Source: Lentisphaerota bacterium
GTDB lineage: Bacteria; Verrucomicrobiota; Kiritimatiellia; CAIQIC01; Lenti-01
Reading direction: 5' to 3'
Assembly (NCBI GenBank): GCA_012511885.1
Contig: JAAZFE010000045.1
Span: forward strand, 1 to 54,092
DNA: 54,092 nt
Position 1 is the stretch's first letter. Each line of letters opens with the position of its first letter. Of this stretch, positions 3,127-54,092 are shown one piece after another. The notes under the pieces were generated by a model that saw only the letters and a list, made by a program, of their open reading frames with translations, did not search any database and was not told the origin of the DNA. Both the position numbers and the translations under genes were made by a program.

Positions 3127-4617
3127 TCACCGGTTCCAGATCCCCCGCGCTTCCTCGAACCGCCCCTGCTGTTCGAGGCAGACCGCCAGATTGTGCCGGG
3201 CCTTGGCGTTTTCCGGCGCGATCTCCACGGCCTCGCGCAAAAGCCGCTCGCTGGCCTCCCACGCCCCCGCCTTCCCCTCGAGAATGCCCCAGTTGATCCG
3301 GCCGCTCACCTGATGCGGATTCGCCTCGACCGCCCGCGCGTACCACTGCCGGGCGGCGGCCGCATCGCCGGCCTCCTCGCTCGCCAGCCCCAGCCAAACC
3401 GCCGCCGTGGCGCTCTGCGGATTGCGCTGCCAGGCCTTGGTCCATAGCCGCTCGCCGCCGGACCACTCGGCTTTTCCCGCCAGCACCAGCGCCGCGCAAA
3501 CCGCCGCCAGCCCCGCCAGCGCCCACCGCCGCCCCGGACGCGGCAAACGCGACACCCCCCACGCCACTGCCAGCGCCAGCCCCGGCGCCTGCGGATAAAG
3601 ATAGCGGTCGGCCACCGGATGCAGCAGCGGCAGCACGTTCGCCACCGGCAAAAAGAGAATCACCACCCACGCCAAACCCAGCGCCAGCCATGGCCGTGCG
3701 CGGCGTCCCCCCCACGCCGCCCCCACCCATCCCATTCCAAAAAGCAGGCCCGCCCAAAAACGCCACGATCCCGCCGACACCACCGGTGCGAACCGCGGCG
3801 TGACATTCAGCGGCCAGGGCCAAAGCAAACGACCCGCGCTCCGCGCCCCGAGCGTCGGCGCCGACCAAATCGTCTCCGGAAAACGCAGCGACTCCCCGTT
3901 CCACGCCCCCCCCACCGCTTGCAGCTCCGTCGGCAAAACCAGCCAAAGCGCGAAAAAACCGGCCGCCAAAACCCCGCATGCCGCCACCAGCGCGAACCGG
4001 CGGCCGCTCTCCCGGGGAAACGCCTCCGGCCAAAGCCCCATCAACACCGCCAGCAGCAGCGGCAGCACCAGCGCGGTCTCCTTGGCCAGCAACGCCAGCG
4101 CGCCCAATGCCAGCCCCCCCGCCAGCCCCAACACGAAACGCTCCCGCGCCCGGGCAAAGGCATGCAATCCGGCCAGCATCAGCAGCAGGCAGAGCACATC
4201 CGCCCGAAACCCCGGCGCGTGCACCGCCTCGACCCCCGCCGGGTGCAGCGCGAACAGCAGCCCCGCCGCCAGCGCCAGCCAGTCGTCCGCCCCCAGGCGT
4301 CGCAACAGCCCCACCCACAATCCCGCGCAGCCCAAATGCAACAGCAGACTCGTCACCCGCCAGCCCGCCGGCCGCAATCCGTACAGCGCGCGATCCGCAA
4401 AATACGTCGCCAGCACCGCCGGCCGCCGACCGTTCACCACCGACGGATCGTTCAGCGTCCGCCCCGTCACCACCTGCGTCCAGTTGGCGGAATCGGCCAG
4501 GTAATCGTTCTCGGCAATCATGCCGATGTCGTCATACAGAAACGGAAACTGCAGCCCCATCAGCCAGGGCGCGGCGACCACAGCCGCGAAGGCCAAACCC
4601 CTGCCCAACCGTTTCAT
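3127..4617 (-). CDS. Polytopic membrane protein with C-terminal TPR repeats; TMTC/PMT-like (GT-C type) putative glycosyltransferase
   Basis: 496-aa ORF with many hydrophobic segments. Acidic FLYDD motif sits just after the first TM. The C-terminal ~120 aa are TPR-like (WLGLASEEAGDAAAARQWYARAVEANP...). Confidence 0.8.
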   Translation of the reverse strand: MKRLGRGLAFAAVVAAPWLMGLQFPFLYDDIGMIAENDYLADSANWTQVVTGRTLNDPSVVNGRRPAVLATYFADRALYGLRPAGWRVTSLLLHLGCAGLWVGLLRRLGADDWLALAAGLLFALHPAGVEAVHAPGFRADVLCLLLMLAGLHAFARARERFVLGLAGGLALGALALLAKETALVLPLLLAVLMGLWPEAFPRESGRRFALVAACGVLAAGFFALWLVLPTELQAVGGAWNGESLRFPETIWSAPTLGARSAGRLLWPWPLNVTPRFAPVVSAGSWRFWAGLLFGMGWVGAAWGGRRARPWLALGLAWVVILFLPVANVLPLLHPVADRYLYPQAPGLALAVAWGVSRLPRPGRRWALAGLAAVCAALVLAGKAEWSGGERLWTKAWQRNPQSATAAVWLGLASEEAGDAAAARQWYARAVEANPHQVSGRINWGILEGKAGAWEASERLLREAVEIAPENAKARHNLAVCLEQQGRFEEARGIWNR

Positions 4618-4629
4618 CCGCCCCCTCTA

Positions 4630-4847
4630 ACCTGGATTATGCACGCGACAAGTCCGGCCCGGATGCGAGGCGTGCGGGGTGAAGCTGTATGGACAACCTG
4701 CGAACCCCGCAGAACAAAGCAGACGGGTTGGAATCGTCGCGCCTTGGGTCAACATGGATAAAAACCGAATTTTCATGATTATTTCCGCATCATGCTGCCC
4801 TGCAGCAAATAAAAATACTTTCATCCATGTTGATGAATAATCCAGGC
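4630..4847 (+). mobile_element. MITE-like element, copy 1 (218 bp, TA-flanked, 11-bp terminal inverted repeats)
   Basis: TA(4628-4629)-ACCTGGATTAT...ATAATCCAGGC-TA(4848-4849). Alignable along its length to copies at 23027, 23892 and 53825. Confidence 0.85.
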
Positions 4848-6958
4848 TAATCCTCCGCGCCGGAGTCCGCCGGCCAGCCCTCCGGCGGAGTCCAGATCCA
4901 CAACTGGAACACCTTTTCGTTGTCCTGAACCGCGAAACGGTTGCCGCGCCTGCTGTGGATCACCGTGGGATAGGCATAACGAATGGGCTCCATGAGCGGC
5001 ACCGCGCCGGGCATGGCAAAAGGATAAATCCCGCGGCCGTGCTCCGTGCTGGTCAGCCACAGCGCCCGGCGGCTGTTCCGCTCTTGCGCGCGGCGCACCA
5101 CCCGGAGAATGTCGCGCTGCGTCCCCGCGTTCCGGCTCTTCCAGAGCAGCTCCCCGTTCAGCACATCGTGCCCCTCCGCCAGCATCAGCGGCGTCCCCCA
5201 CAGCGCGGCATCCGCCACCACGAGATCGCCCGGCTCAAGCCGCGAGGCCACCGCGGCCAGCGTGGCCGTCAACCCGCGGTAATCCCCCACCCGCGCGGCC
5301 GCCCGGCTCAAACCGAACGACTGCCCCGCCGCCGGCGCCAACACCAGCAGAACCAGCCACCACCGCCCGCCCCCCCGCGCCCGGACAAGCTGCACGAGCC
5401 CCAGCACGGCGGCCGCCTGACCCAGCGCCAGCAGCGGCACCCAGAACACCACAATCCGCCGCAGCGCCCAGGGATAAACCGCCGCGATGCGCGGGTTCCA
5501 GAACAGGCTCAGGCAAACCATCCCCAATCCCAGCACCGCAATCCTGGCAGGCTTCATGGACGGGTCGGGCTTCCAGAAAAGCCAGGCCAGCCCCAGCCCC
5601 GCCCAGACCACCGTCAGTGGCCCCTGAAACGGAATGACCCGGCACAAATAGCTCAGCGACCGCCCCACCAGCGGGCACGCGGACACCGCCCGGAACAGGG
5701 CGGGCCGAAAAGCCGTCACCACGCTGGCCAGCCCCATCAACGCCAGAAGCAAACTCACCGCCGCGGCCGCCAGCAAAATCCACCGCACGCTCCGCGCGCG
5801 CCACTCCGCCGGCAGCGGCTGCCGGATAAAGGCCCAGCTCAGCGCCGCGCCGCCCACCACAATCATCATGATGACCCGCAGGGCCTGATCCTTGTCCTCC
5901 AGCCGCGTCACCGTGACCCCCGCGAAACTCAAATTCCAGGCGATAGCCAGCCCGATCGCCGCAAAGCACCAGCCGATTCTCTCCCGGCGGCCCGGCGCTC
6001 CCGCCCCCCCCTCCACGAAGGCCGCCACCACCAGGATGATGGTGGCCAGCGCCGCGACATTCAGGTGATTGATCGTGGCCGCGAACAGCGCCGCCATCGC
6101 GCCCAGCGGCATCCGGGCCCCGCGCCCGGCGGCCTGCGCGTAGAGCAGCGCGCCGCCCAGCAAAAGAAGCTGATAGAGCATTTCCGAGGTGGGCAGGCTT
6201 TGGTGATACCACCACAGCGGCGCCAGCAGCCAGCAGGCCAGCACCAGCCAGCGCCGCCACCCGCCCATCGCGATGCCATCGCCCAGCGCCAGCAGCGGGA
6301 TCAGCCCCCACAAGGCCAGAATGGCCGGCAGGCGCACCAGCAAACCCACCCCCCCCATGCGCAGAAACCACGCGCCGCAAAGCGACGTCAGATGGAAAAA
6401 GTACACCGGCAGCGATCCGTCCTCCGTCCGCACGGGCACGCCGGGCAGAATCTCCCGATAACGATCCTCCGCCGTCGAAAGCAGCACGCGCTCTTCCTCG
6501 GTCATGTCCGCATAGATCGAATCCACGCGCGCCTGCAGCCCGCCCTGCCGCGCCACGGCCACCGCGTTGTTCTGATAAATCCCCGGGTCCCACCCCCCCG
6601 CCAGCCACTCGGAGCGCGGCGGACTGCACAGCGGAATCGCCGTCAGCGCCCACACCAAAACCAGCGCCTGAGCCGCGCGCCCCGCAAGCGGCCGCCAGTC
6701 GGCTTCTCGTTTGAACGCCCACAACACCCCCCCCAGCACCACCAGGGCCCAGAGCGCCCAGTCCGCCGCCGGCGACCACGCCTCCAGCGACGCCAGCGCC
6801 ACCACCGCCAGGAGATTCAGCAGCACGCCCAGCGCCAGAACCCGCCCCATCCGCGCCAGCCACCCCCCGCCCCCCCCCGCCCAGACGCCGCCGGCCAGCG
6901 CCACCCGCGCCGTCAGCAAAAAACTGCCCGCGATCAGCTCCATGAGGGGATCCGCCAT
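4847..6958 (-). CDS. Large polytopic integral membrane protein (703 aa), possible GT-C-type glycosyltransferase
   Basis: Long ORF with more than 12 hydrophobic segments and a soluble C-terminal ~150 aa. It lies directly downstream of a Dpm1/GtrB-like GT2. No specific family recognised. Confidence 0.75.
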   Translation of the reverse strand: MADPLMELIAGSFLLTARVALAGGVWAGGGGGWLARMGRVLALGVLLNLLAVVALASLEAWSPAADWALWALVVLGGVLWAFKREADWRPLAGRAAQALVLVWALTAIPLCSPPRSEWLAGGWDPGIYQNNAVAVARQGGLQARVDSIYADMTEEERVLLSTAEDRYREILPGVPVRTEDGSLPVYFFHLTSLCGAWFLRMGGVGLLVRLPAILALWGLIPLLALGDGIAMGGWRRWLVLACWLLAPLWWYHQSLPTSEMLYQLLLLGGALLYAQAAGRGARMPLGAMAALFAATINHLNVAALATIILVVAAFVEGGAGAPGRRERIGWCFAAIGLAIAWNLSFAGVTVTRLEDKDQALRVIMMIVVGGAALSWAFIRQPLPAEWRARSVRWILLAAAAVSLLLALMGLASVVTAFRPALFRAVSACPLVGRSLSYLCRVIPFQGPLTVVWAGLGLAWLFWKPDPSMKPARIAVLGLGMVCLSLFWNPRIAAVYPWALRRIVVFWVPLLALGQAAAVLGLVQLVRARGGGRWWLVLLVLAPAAGQSFGLSRAAARVGDYRGLTATLAAVASRLEPGDLVVADAALWGTPLMLAEGHDVLNGELLWKSRNAGTQRDILRVVRRAQERNSRRALWLTSTEHGRGIYPFAMPGAVPLMEPIRYAYPTVIHSRRGNRFAVQDNEKVFQLWIWTPPEGWPADSGAED

Positions 6959-13458: not shown

Positions 13459-14175
13459 ATGAAGAAAATTGCTTTGGTAACGGGCGGCGGCAGCGGAATC
13501 GGACAGGCTCTGGCTCAACGGCTGGCCGCGGAAGGCCACTTTGTTTTCCTCGCCGGGCGCAACGCGCAAAAACTGGAAACCACCTGCGCGTTGATCGGGC
13601 AGGCCGGCGGCCGGGCCGAGGCGCTCACCGCGGACCTCGCCGACGAAGCGAGCATCCGCCAACTGGCCGCCCAAATCAAGGCGCGGACACCAACCCTGGA
13701 TGTGCTGGTCCACAGCGCCGGCTGCTTCCGGATGGGAACGCTGGAGTCGGCGCACATCGCCGACTTGGACGACCTCTATCAGGTCAACCTGCGCGCGCCT
13801 TATCTGCTCACCCAGCTGCTGTACGCCCTCCTGCTCAAGGCGGCGGGGCAGATCGTGTTCATCAATTCGACCGCCATCCTGAATCCCGGCGCGAACTGGG
13901 GCGCCTATGCCGCCACCAAAGCCGCCCTGCGGGCCATGGCCGACAGCCTGCGCGCGGAAATCAACCCGCGCGGCGTGCGTGTTCTCACCGTCATTCCCGG
14001 ACGAACCGACACCCCCATGCAGGAGCAGGTCCACCAGCTGGAAAACCGCCCCTATCAAGCCGACCGCCTCATGCGCCCCGACGATGTCGCGCTCATGACC
14101 ATGCAGGCCCTGAACCTGCCCCCAAGCGCGGAAGTCACTGAAATCGTCGTCCGCCCTGCCCAAAAACTGAGCTAG
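13459..14175 (+). CDS. Short-chain dehydrogenase/reductase (classical SDR)
   Basis: TGGGSGIG cofactor motif, NSTA, and YAATKAAL catalytic YxxxK. Confidence 0.92.
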   Translation: MKKIALVTGGGSGIGQALAQRLAAEGHFVFLAGRNAQKLETTCALIGQAGGRAEALTADLADEASIRQLAAQIKARTPTLDVLVHSAGCFRMGTLESAHIADLDDLYQVNLRAPYLLTQLLYALLLKAAGQIVFINSTAILNPGANWGAYAATKAALRAMADSLRAEINPRGVRVLTVIPGRTDTPMQEQVHQLENRPYQADRLMRPDDVALMTMQALNLPPSAEVTEIVVRPAQKLS

Positions 14176-14195
14176 TCTGGATAATTCATGCAGGC
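14175..14195 (+). repeat. 21-bp remnant carrying both termini of the MITE-like element, TA-flanked
   Basis: TA-GTCTGGAT|AATTCATGCAGGC-TA, compared with element ends GCCTGGATTAT...ATAATTCAGGC. The left TA is part of the SDR TAG stop. Confidence 0.35.
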
Positions 14196-14214
14196 TAGCC
14201 AGCAGGCCGCCTGC

Positions 14215-22274: not shown

Positions 22275-23027
22275 ATGAAACCACCCACCACCCGGCTCCT
22301 TTTGTGCGTCATCGCGCTGATCGCGGCCACGGGCGCCAACACCCGGGCCGAACGGCGGGAATACTCGCTCTTCGGCTACGAACCCGCTTTCGAAATCAAC
22401 GACCGCCTCGAAATTGGCGCCCGTATCTACCGATTTTCCATCCGAGACGATCGGCGGACCGGCCCCAACGGCCCGAGGAACTCCAATCCCCGTGTCAACT
22501 ACATTGGCAGTTTGTGGGGGCTCGACGAGATCCAGGACTATATTCCTCGCCTCTATGTACAGTATGCCTTCACCCCCTACTTTGGTGCCGGGGTCTCCTA
22601 CGACCGGCTCGCCGCCAAAACCCTGGACACCCCAGTAAAAGAGAAAAACTGGAAACCGGGCGATGGGGATATCCAGATCCGCGGGCCAATGCTCTATTTA
22701 TTTGCCCGTTATCCCAACATGACCCGGTTCACCCCGTTCGGCGAGCTGGGCTGGATCTACTACTACGCCGACTTCAAAGTGATGGACGAGTGGGCCTCGC
22801 TCGGCCCCTATCACCGGTTTTCCGTGGACAACACCCACGCCTATTTCCTGGGCCTGGGTCTCAACACCGCCCTGACCGACCGCTGGCACGTGAACGCCTA
22901 CTGGCGGCGCACCTTTGAGGCCGACGTGGATGTCCGGGTCTATTTTCGAAAAGAACGTCTCAGCCGCAAAGGAACTTTCCCCATGGATTCCGATGTGTTC
23001 GGCCTGGGCGTATCCTATCTGTTCTAG
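22275..23027 (+). CDS. Outer-membrane beta-barrel protein (small, about 8-10 strands)
   Basis: Signal peptide MKPPTTRLLLCVIALIAATGA, alternating aromatic/hydrophobic strands, and a C-terminal GLGVSYLF beta-signal. GGAGG lies 8 nt upstream. Confidence 0.75.
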   Translation: MKPPTTRLLLCVIALIAATGANTRAERREYSLFGYEPAFEINDRLEIGARIYRFSIRDDRRTGPNGPRNSNPRVNYIGSLWGLDEIQDYIPRLYVQYAFTPYFGAGVSYDRLAAKTLDTPVKEKNWKPGDGDIQIRGPMLYLFARYPNMTRFTPFGELGWIYYYADFKVMDEWASLGPYHRFSVDNTHAYFLGLGLNTALTDRWHVNAYWRRTFEADVDVRVYFRKERLSRKGTFPMDSDVFGLGVSYLF

Positions 23028-23245
23028 CCTGAATTATGCACGCGACAAGTCCAGTTCAGATGCGAGGCGGGCGGGGCGAAGCTGTATTGGCATACAGCGA
23101 ACCCCGCCGAACAAAGCAGATGGACTGGAATCGTCGCGCCCTTGGTCAATATGGATGAAAAATGATTTTTTTATGTTTATTTCCGCATCATGTTGCCCTG
23201 CAACAAATAACAATGTTTTCATCCATGTTGATGAATAATTCAGGC
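23027..23245 (+). mobile_element. MITE-like element, copy 2 (219 bp)
   Basis: TA(23025-23026)-GCCTGAATTAT...ATAATTCAGGC-TA(23246-23247). The first base completes the TAG stop of the upstream gene. Confidence 0.88.
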
Positions 23246-23268
23246 TAGATGAATCGAGGATAGCTCTC

Positions 23269-23892
23269 ATGTGGTTGCTGCGATGGATGGGCGCCGGAAT
23301 GGCCTGGGGACAAAAGGCCCGCAATCTGTGCGTGCAGCATTATGTAGCCGCCCGCCTCGGCCAAAAAGGACGCGGCCTCTCCATCGGCGAAGGCGTCAAA
23401 CTCCTCGGCCCCCGCCATATTCGCGTCGGCAACGATGTGACCATGGCTCCCTTCGTCATCTTGCGTGCCATGACCGCCTACCCCTGGACGCAACCGCCCC
23501 AAACCTTCTCCCCGGAAATCGTCATCGGGGACAACTGCTTCATCAACCGCTTTTCAGAAATCTCCTGCGTCCGACGGGTGGTGATCGGCGCGAACACCAT
23601 GATCGCCCAAAACTGCCTGATCGCCGACCACAACCACGGCTATGAGGACCCTCAATTAAGCGTCCGCGCCCAACCCCTGACTGCTGAGGGCGAAGTGCAC
23701 ATCGGCGCGGACTCGTGGATCGGCGCCAACTGCACCATTGCCGGCAATGTCCGCGTTGGCAGGCACTGCGTCATCGCCGCCCACTCTGTGGTCATCCATG
23801 ACATCCCAGACTATTCCGTGGCCGCCGGCTCGCCCGCCAAAATCATTCGGCAATACGATCCGGCCGACGGCGTCTGGCGGAAAATGGTGTAG
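23269..23892 (+). CDS. Left-handed beta-helix (hexapeptide repeat) sugar O-acetyltransferase
   Basis: Repeated [LIV]G hexapeptides: IGANTMIAQNCLIADHNHG...IGADSWIGANCTIAGNVRVGRHCVIAAHSVV. Confidence 0.88.
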   Translation: MWLLRWMGAGMAWGQKARNLCVQHYVAARLGQKGRGLSIGEGVKLLGPRHIRVGNDVTMAPFVILRAMTAYPWTQPPQTFSPEIVIGDNCFINRFSEISCVRRVVIGANTMIAQNCLIADHNHGYEDPQLSVRAQPLTAEGEVHIGADSWIGANCTIAGNVRVGRHCVIAAHSVVIHDIPDYSVAAGSPAKIIRQYDPADGVWRKMV

Positions 23893-24110
23893 CCTGGATT
23901 ATGCACGCGACAAGTCTAGTTCAGATGCGAGGCGGGCGGGGTGAAGCTGGTTTGGCAACCAGCGAACTCCGCAGAACAAAGCAGATGGACTGGAATCGTC
24001 GCGCCTTGGGTCAACATGGATGAAAAATGAATCTTTTGCACTCATTTCCGCATCAAGATGCCCTGCAGCAAATAACATTATTTTCATCCATGTTGATGAA
24101 TAACCCAGGC
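23892..24110 (+). mobile_element. MITE-like element, copy 3 (219 bp)
   Basis: TA(23890-23891)-GCCTGGATTAT...ATAACCCAGGC-TA(24111-24112). The next gene's ATG follows 7 nt after the element end. Confidence 0.88.
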
Positions 24111-24117
24111 TAGCTCC

Positions 24118-25357: not shown

Positions 25358-25427
25358 AAATTATCCGCATCATGGCTCACTAGAACAGGATATGACTTTT
25401 TTATCCATGTTGATGAATTATTCAGGT
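25358..25427 (+). repeat. Truncated, diverged right-end fragment of the MITE-like element (copy 4)
   Basis: AATTATCCGCATCATGG...TTTTTATCCATGTTGATGAATTATTCAGGT followed by TA. It matches only the right ~70 bp of the full copies. Confidence 0.6.
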
Positions 25428-25465
25428 TAATCGAAGATGCACCCTCTATTGTTTCAGGTGGGCCT

Positions 25466-27375: not shown

Positions 27376-27469
27376 TTCTGTCTCGGCAAAAGCGGGTTTT
27401 GCGAGCCGATATCACTAACAACCATCGTAGAACAATCCGGACGGAATAACAAGCCCGACAGCCCGTTGT

Positions 27470-28231
27470 GAACCGCCGGGTTGAGGATCAACTACAAGCG
27501 CCAGCCGCGGGGGCCAGGTTTCGGCCACGGCGCGGCAGAACTGGATGGGCCTGTTTCGAGAAGATGGGACGAACGCACTTCACCCGAAATGTTGCGGTCG
27601 CAGTTGCGGCACGAAACGCAAACTTACGAAGAGGCAGGAACAAGTCATTCAACTTCAGCCTGCGGACAAGGATCCGGTGCAGCTCAAACGGCCTTTTATG
27701 CTGTGGTCGCGGTTCTCCGCAGGACAGCGGTATGGCCCCAAAAACTCGCGTCAACGTGATCTCCGCCTTTAGCAATCGCGGTGATCTTCGATTCATATGT
27801 CCTACAAGGGTGGCATGAAGGCCTCGACCTTCACGCGATTCTTGAGCCGATTGATCCGCAGGGCAGCGCAGAAGATCTTCTTGATCGTGGACAATTTGCG
27901 AATCCAGCGGAGCGTGGGTGAGCGCAAATGGGTGGCCGGACGGGCGGATCGAATAGAGTTATTCTACTTTCCTCCCTATTCTCCGGAATTCAATCCTGAT
28001 GAAAATCTCAACCCGGCCATAAAAGCGCAGTTGAAAAACCGTCCCTGGGGCTTCGACCGCAAGGCCATGCATTCCGCAGGCCATGCATTCCGCATGGAGG
28101 CAGCAGCGGAACCTGGACGTACTATTCTTTCTCCTCTCACGATGCAGCCGGATTTGAATGATCTCGAATTGGATCAGCTGGAAGGGGATTCCCTATCAAA
28201 TGGCCTTATTGAATATTGCTTATGTAGGTAG
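27470..28231 (+). pseudogene. IS630/Tc1-mariner-family DDE transposase, frameshifted and N-terminally truncated
   Basis: Pieces lie in three frames: KLTKRQEQVIQLQ..DPVQLKRPFMLWSR; NVISAFSNRGDLRFI; then KASTFTRFLSRLIRRAAQKIFLIVDNLRIQRS...IELFYFPPYSPEFNPDENLN (DDE core). No intact ORF. Confidence 0.8.
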
Positions 28232-53775: not shown

Positions 53776-53824
53776 CAGTTCGCTCACAACCCGCACCAGA
53801 CTTGCGGATTTCGGAACCACTCTA

Positions 53825-53971
53825 ACCTGAATTATGCACGCGACAAGTCCAGTTCAGATGCGAGGCGGGCGGGGTGAAGCTGTATTGGCATACTGCGAAC
53901 CCCGCAGAACAAAGCAGATGGACTGGAATCGTCGCGCCCTTGGTCAATATGAATGAAAAATGATTTTTTTA
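53825..53971 (+). mobile_element. MITE-like element, copy 5, left ~147 bp only
   Basis: TA(53823-53824)-ACCTGAATTATGCACGCGACAAGTCC... is colinear with copy 2 up to ...ATGATTTTTTTA, then switches to unrelated A/T-rich sequence. Confidence 0.8.
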
Positions 53972-54027
53972 CACTACCATCCCATAGGGATGTCATTTTG
54001 AGCTGGGGAAGCGGATAAAAAAGAGTG

Positions 54028-54087
54028 TTGGTCTTGATTTTGTGTGCCTGTAGCCTACAGGTATTATGAAAAAAAACTCAAGACCAA
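54028..54087. repeat. Nested inverted repeats in A/T-rich DNA at the window edge
   Basis: TTGGTCTTGA (54028-54037) pairs with TCAAGACCAA (54078-54087). Inner palindrome CCTGTAG-C-CTACAGG at 54047-54061. Confidence 0.5.
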
Positions 54088-54092
54088 GACCA

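Follow-up and report, generated by a model that had tools for sequence, protein, structure and literature searches.

The question raised by this locus is what kind of repeat is scattered through the 54,092-nt stretch of DNA that was analysed (hereafter the window), and what moved it there. The window is a contig from an anaerobic-digester metagenome, and the same locus recurs in several samples; SRR34068994, ERR2683225, SRR3166066 and ERZ18327520 are other samples in which this strain is carried. Its host is an uncultured Kiritimatiellae bacterium with a genome of 61.5% G+C, and the enolase encoded in the window is 84-87% identical to the enolases of Kiritimatiellae and 'Verrucomicrobia' MAGs. 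An original prediction, made from the letters of the window, had described the repeats as MITE-like units of about 219 bp, bounded by terminal inverted repeats (TIRs), flanked by TA and mobilised in trans by an IS630-type enzyme.

All of the pieces listed in that prediction were recovered in the window (Table 1), each on the + strand: three full copies, one left and one right part, and a two-ended remnant. None has coding capacity, and so none encodes a transposase, as had been proposed. The three full copies align end to end, with identity dropping sharply at the flanks, but at a pairwise identity of 85-88% the earlier description of the units as near-identical was overstated. The element proper reads 5'-CCTGGATWATKCA...TGAATWATYCAGG-3' and is 216-217 bp long, running from CCTG to CAGG; the boundaries drawn earlier were one base too wide on each side, and the two-ended remnant, given before as 21 bp (14175-14195), is 19 bp. 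The left-end and right-end motifs each occur four times on the + strand of the window, where the chance expectation is 0. The right-end fragment has lost the left portion of the element. The copy at the far end of the window, previously classed as left-end-only, does possess its left part, but is really a copy interrupted after position ~147 by another exact repeat.

Table 1. Coordinates of MITE copies and associated features in the window, and of shorter family variants at other loci (L numbers).
Feature	Coordinates	Strand	Details
MITE copy 1	4627..4850	+	Element 4631-4846; TSD CTAA (4627-4630) and CTAA (4847-4850)
MITE copy 2	23024..23248	+	Element 23028-23244; TSD CTAG (23024-23027) and CTAG (23245-23248)
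MITE copy 3	23889..24113	+	Element 23893-24109; GTAG (23889-23892) / CTAG (24110-24113), 3/4 matching
MITE copy 4	53822..53971	+	TSD CTAA (53822-53825); element positions 1 to ~147 (53826-53971), then interrupted
Sequence inside copy 4	53972..54092	+	Different, exactly repeated sequence (CACTACCATCCC...), as indicated by contig ends; hairpin and possible ORF start ATGAAAAAAAACTCAAGACCA...
Right-end MITE fragment	25360..25430	+	Model positions 151-217 (25360-25426), ending ...GAATTATTCAGG, then TTAA (25427-25430)
Two-ended MITE remnant, 19 bp	14172..14198	+	TCTGGATAATTCATGCAGG (14176-14194); CTAG (14172-14175) / CTAG (14195-14198)
Decayed IS630-family element	27401..28231	+	DDE_3 fragment 27797-28231 (Pfam, E = 1.8e-20)
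Shorter family variants (~136-199 bp)	L011:430-593, L033:2238-2402, L025:7225-7423, L025:11734-11911, L010:2715-2884, L012:6583-6718		

Beyond the window, the left-end 22-mer matched 28 loci, which are mutually non-overlapping and non-redundant, and BLAST and nhmmer searches placed ~45 further copies at these loci, giving ~50 copies and fragments with those of the window included; every copy outside the window was drawn from a single metagenome assembly (LSQX01, digester samples of PRJNA283612). The dispersed copies lie beside unrelated housekeeping genes. Full copies keep tightly to a length of 212-218 bp across loci, and no ORF is conserved across 32 aligned copies. Identity to copy 2 ranges from 70 to 92%, and copies differ from one another by 8-25%, a divergence which may indicate an old family that is no longer active. 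The shorter variants retain both ends and the left hairpin of the fold described below, while the right hairpin is missing wholly or in part; since most of them are nevertheless flanked by a perfect 4-bp target-site duplication (TSD), the right arm is evidently dispensable for mobility or persistence.

An exact scan for the 22-mer across 185,579 GTDB species representative genomes gave no match, nor did a scan of viral contigs for the element and for the sequence that follows copy 4, or a blastn comparison of the element with plasmids and phages. No family member was detected by nhmmer in any of 80 loci from relatives, the whole window had no match in Rfam at the gathering score (copies 2 and 3 returned only noise at E values up to 1), and the literature search found no paper naming both Kiritimatiellae and MITEs. 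The family matches none of the collections or papers searched, and is previously undescribed. In the MAG nearest to the host (L036, enolase 87% identical), synteny with the window extends up to a TPR gene and stops exactly at the position of copy 1, the neighbour of which is replaced by a tmRNA-like gene; a tmRNA/tRNA-like 3' end (TGGTGGAGGCGGCGGGAGTCGAACCCGC, minus strand) is found at L036:14560-14700, where copy 1 would be, and this MAG therefore supplied no orthologous empty site. The position of this breakpoint suggests a rearrangement hotspot.

The length of the TSD is the main clue to the family of a transposase, and here it excludes the neighbouring IS630 element. The flanking direct repeat is not the 2-bp TA proposed originally, but 4 bp of the form NTAN, mostly YTAR, which is perfect in 27 of 38 two-ended copies and matches at three of four positions in 5 more. 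In copies that have TA at each flank, the base before the TA agrees across the two sides in 26/29 (P = 4e-7) and the base after it in 25/29 (P = 6e-9), and tetramers without a central TA (CAAC, CCAA, TCAA) are also duplicated in full. The tetramer varies by copy and is the same on both sides, the 27 perfect TSDs representing 13 different tetramers. Once all two-ended copies are lined up, the variable outermost base formerly assigned to the TIR falls within the flank, as part of the 4-bp duplication. The TIRs themselves are 10-13 bp, and their stem (helix 1) comprises 12 pairs (97.4% paired). A co-variation reported between the ends of copies 1 and 2 (G:C and A:T at TIR position 5) is real for these two copies but does not hold across 32 copies, where the counts are GC 18, GU 8, AC 5 and AU 1; the true co-variation of the TIR is at position 8 (UA 24, AU 6), a compensatory swap.

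An insertion can be reconstructed at L027, where an outer copy is split at GTAG by an inner copy flanked by GTAG on either side. The outer halves correspond to model positions 1-99 and 97-217 (nhmmer), and removal of the insert together with one TSD restores the consensus, so that this nested insertion is a paralogous empty site. At L010, tandem copies have one CTAG in common, and a copy also lies within a tiny two-ended relic. The target reconstructed from the family is t-Y-T-A-R-a. YTAR was used at 14 of 25 perfect-TSD sites and NTAN or something near it at the rest, although YTAR (1.55/kb) is twelve times rarer than NTAN (18.4/kb). The same sites have T at the second position in 23/25 and A at the third in 24/25, which bears out the TA-centred target of the original prediction. 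In its size, its want of an ORF, its TIRs, its TSD and its dispersal in many copies, the repeat family is a genuine MITE, that is, a non-autonomous, TIR-bounded mobile element as first proposed, and to this extent it is ordinary biology. Insertion would proceed by a 4-bp staggered cut at N-TA-N, with t-YTAR-a preferred, the cut becoming the 4-bp direct repeat, and mobilisation would have to be in trans, by a DDE-type transposase that was not found in the window or at the other loci.

The choice of target has a consequence for the genes alongside. All copies are intergenic, and ~13 gene ends adjoin the element at distance 0, in contact through the stop codon, since TAA or TAG forms part of the TSD, the duplication of which regenerates the stop. 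As YTAR holds TAA/TAG and is rare in a genome of 61.5% G+C, copies often land exactly on the stop codons between genes, and as the stop is regenerated, such insertions would be harmless. In the window, copy 1 lies between two minus-strand genes and its right TSD provides the stop codon of one of them (4847-6958, minus strand), the left CTAG of copy 2 holds the TAG stop of an OMP gene (22275-23027), and the left GTAG of copy 3 holds the stop of a hexapeptide-transferase gene (23269-23892), which is bracketed by copies 2 and 3 inside an operon. Where genes converge on the element, as at L030 and at the 19-bp remnant in the window, each keeps its stop codon from one copy of the TSD. By targeting YTAR in a GC-rich genome, the element slots onto stop codons and regenerates them, and can in this way spread silently inside operons.

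The neighbouring genes are varied, among them genes for malic enzyme, an RseP-type protease, DsbD, a TonB receptor, aminotransferases and glycosyltransferases. The window and L009/L020 had raised the suspicion that copies are enriched in polysaccharide gene clusters, but this was rejected, as the flanking genes elsewhere are varied housekeeping genes. A scan of copies 2 and 3 for promoters and terminators found none inside the elements. The start codon of a GT4 gene (24118) lies 8 nt past copy 3, and the only Shine-Dalgarno-like AGG upstream of this start comes from the terminal CCAGG of that copy.

The copies also share a conserved fold-back. Their folds are much more stable than those of shuffled sequence (z = -5.9 to -9.5), and the consensus of 32 copies contains 55 pairs in 7 helices, with 97.8% of cells paired, laid out as a TIR stem that encloses a long, branched left hairpin and a right hairpin of 13 pairs. 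Compensatory double changes occur at 9 pairs across the 32 copies, for example CCGGCCCGG/CGGGTTGG against CCAGTTCAG/TGGACTGG, and CTGTAT/ATACAG against CTGGTT/AACCAG, these variants being a few blocks recombined among copies, so that the number of independent events is small. The covariation score was reached in none of 500 shuffles, and slid controls were only 28-39% paired. The two strands are not quite equivalent: G.U cells outnumber A.C cells in the alignment by 71 to 21, and the fold of the top strand is a little more stable than that of the bottom strand (-49.2 versus -45.2 kcal/mol, DNA parameters), a difference found in 29 of 30 copies.

The single orientation of the copies in the window, noted originally, stands, and is the local expression of a polarity relative to GC skew that runs through the genome. 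The + strand of the window has a skew of -0.05 to -0.21 in every 5-kb bin, and 36 of the 37 called genes, on both gene strands, have a negative GC3 skew, with most values between -0.12 and -0.54; this is an exceptionally strong asymmetry of the replication type, noted for the window and loci L007-L034. Over all loci, 65% of coding bases are on the G-rich strand, which identifies this as the leading strand. With elements masked and copies counted where |skew| was >= 0.05, the orientation of 41 copies was concordant with the local skew and that of 4 discordant (P = 9e-9); by locus, 21 agreed with the skew, 2 opposed it and 1 was mixed (P = 7e-5). In ~90% of copies it is the C-rich strand, which would be the lagging strand, that reads 5'-CCTGGATTATGCAC. 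Orientation relative to flanking genes is a weaker association (17 antisense, 5 sense), with four of the five sense copies still following the skew; copy 1 is antisense to its operon, and copies 2 and 3 have the same direction as theirs. Because orientation tracks skew better than gene direction, replication rather than transcription is the primary correlate, and this argues against a function at the RNA level as the main reason for the fold.

Orientation biases specific to particular families of insertion sequences are known, and binding to the sliding clamp has been found for transposases of nine families, IS5a and IS1380 among them, yet when genomes were surveyed, little bias relative to replication was seen for IS630, IS701, IS1380 and most IS5 groups (PMC3971601). 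A bias of ~90% in an element with TIRs and a TSD is therefore unusual, the more so in combination with a fold supported by covariation, and a step that couples insertion to the replication fork is without direct precedent in IS1380, IS701 and most IS5 groups. We infer such a coupling, for instance via the sliding clamp or lagging-strand ends, as the source of the polarity. Taken as a whole, the explanation considered probable is that of a MITE mobilised in trans by an enzyme other than IS630, inserted through a 4-bp stagger at N-TA-N, maintaining its fold by compensatory change, and polar because its insertion is coupled to replication. If the polarity is reproduced in a closed genome, the family would provide a natural system for studying how transposases sense the polarity of the fork.

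The main alternative to the fork-coupling step is selection after insertion. In this case the same MITE would insert at random and copies in the other orientation would be purged, whether through hairpin extrusion or SbcCD-type cleavage on the lagging-strand template or through a polar motif inside the element. In its favour, the bottom strand, which would be the one exposed on that template, has the lower stability, and the age suggested by identities of 70-92% would have left time for purifying selection. Against it, the gap in stability is small (~4 of ~47 kcal/mol) and both strands fold strongly. Nor are the discordant copies all degenerate, two of the four being full copies (L021:11977-12201 and L021:4882-5098). 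Selection is considered a possible but improbable source of the polarity.

A more specific version of the coupling is regarded as rather unlikely, namely that transposition with TIRs and a 4-bp TSD is mechanically tied to the replication fork, with the folded single strand, exposed on one template strand, serving as the substrate or targeting signal that fixes orientation. Should it prove true, it would join duplications of the DDE type with a strand polarity like that of IS200/IS605 or Tn7-TnsE, features that have so far been seen separately, and would provide a concrete case for the long-standing proposal that MITEs are amplified via replication hairpins.

Strand polarity and hairpins also bring to mind single-strand transposition by HUH/Y1 enzymes, of the kind carried out by IS200/IS605 and their PATEs or by REP/RAYT systems; such an enzyme would recognise hairpins formed on the template of the lagging strand, which would account for both the polarity and the conserved folds. 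These systems resemble the MITE in their strong replication orientation bias and in their hairpins, which are essential to them, and of all families IS200 has the clearest bias of orientation (PMC3971601). The compensatory changes that conserve the hairpins, the slightly more stable top strand and the excess of G.U over A.C cells could all be read in the same sense. However, elements of this type have no TIRs and no target duplication, and insert beside a fixed tetranucleotide, whereas the MITE has true inverted ends and the marks of a staggered cut, with its perfect TSDs spread over many different tetramers; no Y1 or RAYT gene was seen. A single-strand element is judged very unlikely.

Equally improbable is a structured RNA or cis-regulatory intergenic module selected by the host, such as an mRNA stabiliser, a processing site or a small RNA. 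The very stable fold, its compensatory changes, the strict length maintained despite 8-25% divergence and the presence of copies at gene junctions inside operons are what such a module would look like. Against it, orientation follows replication and not transcription, with antisense copies in the majority, neither an Rfam match nor a promoter or terminator signature was found, the TSDs and the nested and tandem insertions demonstrate mobility, and the family is absent from the loci of relatives and, by the 22-mer scan, from the GTDB species representatives.

With the mobile element preferred, there remains the enzyme that would move it. The ends of IS5-group elements normally begin with GG (ISfinder tables), those of IS5 itself being GGAAGGTGCGAATAAG, the signature of the IS1380 family is 5'-CC...GG-3' ends with a 4-5-bp duplication, and piggyBac combines CC...GG ends with duplication of the TA-centred tetranucleotide TTAA. 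The TSD of the MITE points to an IS5-group enzyme, in which the duplication is likewise 4 bp long and has the motif 5'-YTAR-3' (PMC5009759), but the MITE ends start with CC instead of GG, and no IS5-type transposase was found nearby. Its termini together with a duplication of 4-5 bp would point to an enzyme like those of IS1380 and piggyBac, IS1380 transposases being treated as prokaryotic relatives of piggyBac (PMC10140906). The ends of ISEcp1, of the IS1380 family, were read from pC15-1a as CCTAGATTCTACGT and CCTAAATTCCACGT, and its IRL (CCTAGATTCTACGT) is identical to the MITE left end (CCTGGATTATGCAC) at 9 of 14 positions; ISEcp1, however, makes 5-bp duplications and the MITE 4-bp ones. 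The binding of IS1380 transposase peptides to the beta sliding clamp may be counted as a further likeness, while IS1380 was without orientation bias in the surveyed genomes (PMC3971601), in contrast to the ~90% polarity of the MITE.

Searches for a partner gave no candidate. No autonomous element with CCTGGATWAT ends was present in the window or in ~280 kb of other loci, there were no pairs of TIR motifs 1-3 kb apart that might enclose a transposase, and tblastn of the ISEcp1 transposase against the window and the other loci found neither a match nor any IS1380-like coding sequence. ORFs present in multiple copies at the loci were considered as the partner transposase and turned out to be DegT aminotransferases. 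IS701, which makes a TSD of exactly 4 bp, was discarded, as its end consensus (---YACT-) is unlike the MITE ends (PMC2266710). Neither IS5 nor IS1380 fits the MITE on every count, and from ends and duplication together we infer an enzyme that would be IS5-like or IS1380/piggyBac-like, and not IS630.

The IS630 family remains to be considered, since the decayed transposase that the original prediction placed at 27470-28231 is indeed in the window, where it is confirmed by a Pfam DDE_3 domain (Table 1). The element is split into two ORFs, and at the left it can be aligned with the TIR of its relatives, which is of the TTAATCCGAC type. An IS630 copy sharing the ends of the MITE, which would have tied the two together, was not what the comparison revealed: the nearest near-complete relative (L117/L118, 75% amino acid identity) measures 1119 bp and has TIRs of 30 nt (TTATTAATCCGACAACTAAATACTTGCACA), its ends (TTATTAATCCGAC..., TTATTAATCCGACAAC type) are unrelated to the CCTGGATTATGCAC of the MITE, and it is with these TIRs that the left end of the remnant aligns. 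Among 5.8 billion proteins, only fragments of this IS630 lineage were found at useful identity. The remnant ORF is also the only called ORF of the window with a near-zero, slightly positive GC skew, and the sole exception to negative GC3 skew, which suggests a comparatively recent foreign arrival.

The IS630/Tc1-mariner family is defined by duplication of a 2-bp TA, so that a 4-bp TSD means the MITE was not driven by an enzyme of this family, and the remnant in the window is not its partner. That the repeat is a MITE which duplicates TA and was mobilised in trans by a transposase such as this remnant is hardly credible, for although the target has a TA core, IS630 itself prefers CTAG and a DDE_3 fragment of the family lies within the window, the duplication extends to the positions flanking the TA and to tetramers without it, the TIRs of the lineage are of another type, the lineage survives only as fragments in the protein collection, and the remnant lacks the skew of its host. 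Correia elements (CREE) of Neisseria, RUP of pneumococcus and ERIC/MITEEc1 duplicate TA only. They are otherwise close parallels to the MITE, as elements of 100-250 bp with TIRs and no ORF that are intergenic, multicopy and strongly folded back, with a TA-centred target, but the MITE differs from them in duplicating 4 bp and in having ends unrelated to the resident IS630 lineage. To our knowledge, no replication polarity has been reported for any of the three.

The interruption of copy 4 concerns a different mobile sequence. Homology to the MITE family ends at 53971, and the contigs assembled with k=127 (the window and L001) end 126 bases, and that with k=141 (L005) 140 bases, after ~53967. 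A contig that reaches an exact repeat would be expected to end in this way, k-1 bases past its edge, and k=31 unitigs halt 30 bases into the conserved left end of the MITE. All assemblies of the window locus break at copy 4, and the MITE repeats, together with the insertion nested in this copy, are break points of every short-read assembly of the host organism. The sequence after copy 4 has no similarity to the other loci, and it was rejected as the parent IS of the MITE, being unrelated in sequence, with contig ends that reveal a separate exact repeat. It is read as a second mobile element, an IS that was active recently and has inserted into the MITE.

Some features of this insert and of nearby repeats may be recorded. 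The insert (53972-54092, continuing in L005:1-14, minus view) starts near TTACACTACCATCC, loosely like the IS701 consensus ---YACT-; within it are a nested hairpin (GTTGGTCTTGA...TCAAGACCAAC) and what may be the start of an ORF, MKKNSRPRPTRRS. At L025, a 266-bp direct repeat (2676-2941 and 3963-4221, 97-98% identical) carries a diverged, MITE-like left end (GCCTGAATCATTCCCGCGACAAG...), and its two copies bracket an ORF of 290 aa that has a Fic motif (HPFMEGNGRSTR) and lies immediately upstream of a metF-like gene; the arrangement looks like a cassette insertion or a duplication seeded at an old copy of the element. Lastly, an AT-rich palindromic motif (TTCTCACATATTATAATAAGTGAGAA-like) adjoins MITE fragments at two unrelated loci (L010:6480-6615 and L032:10915-10960), and may represent another small repeat family or an operator.
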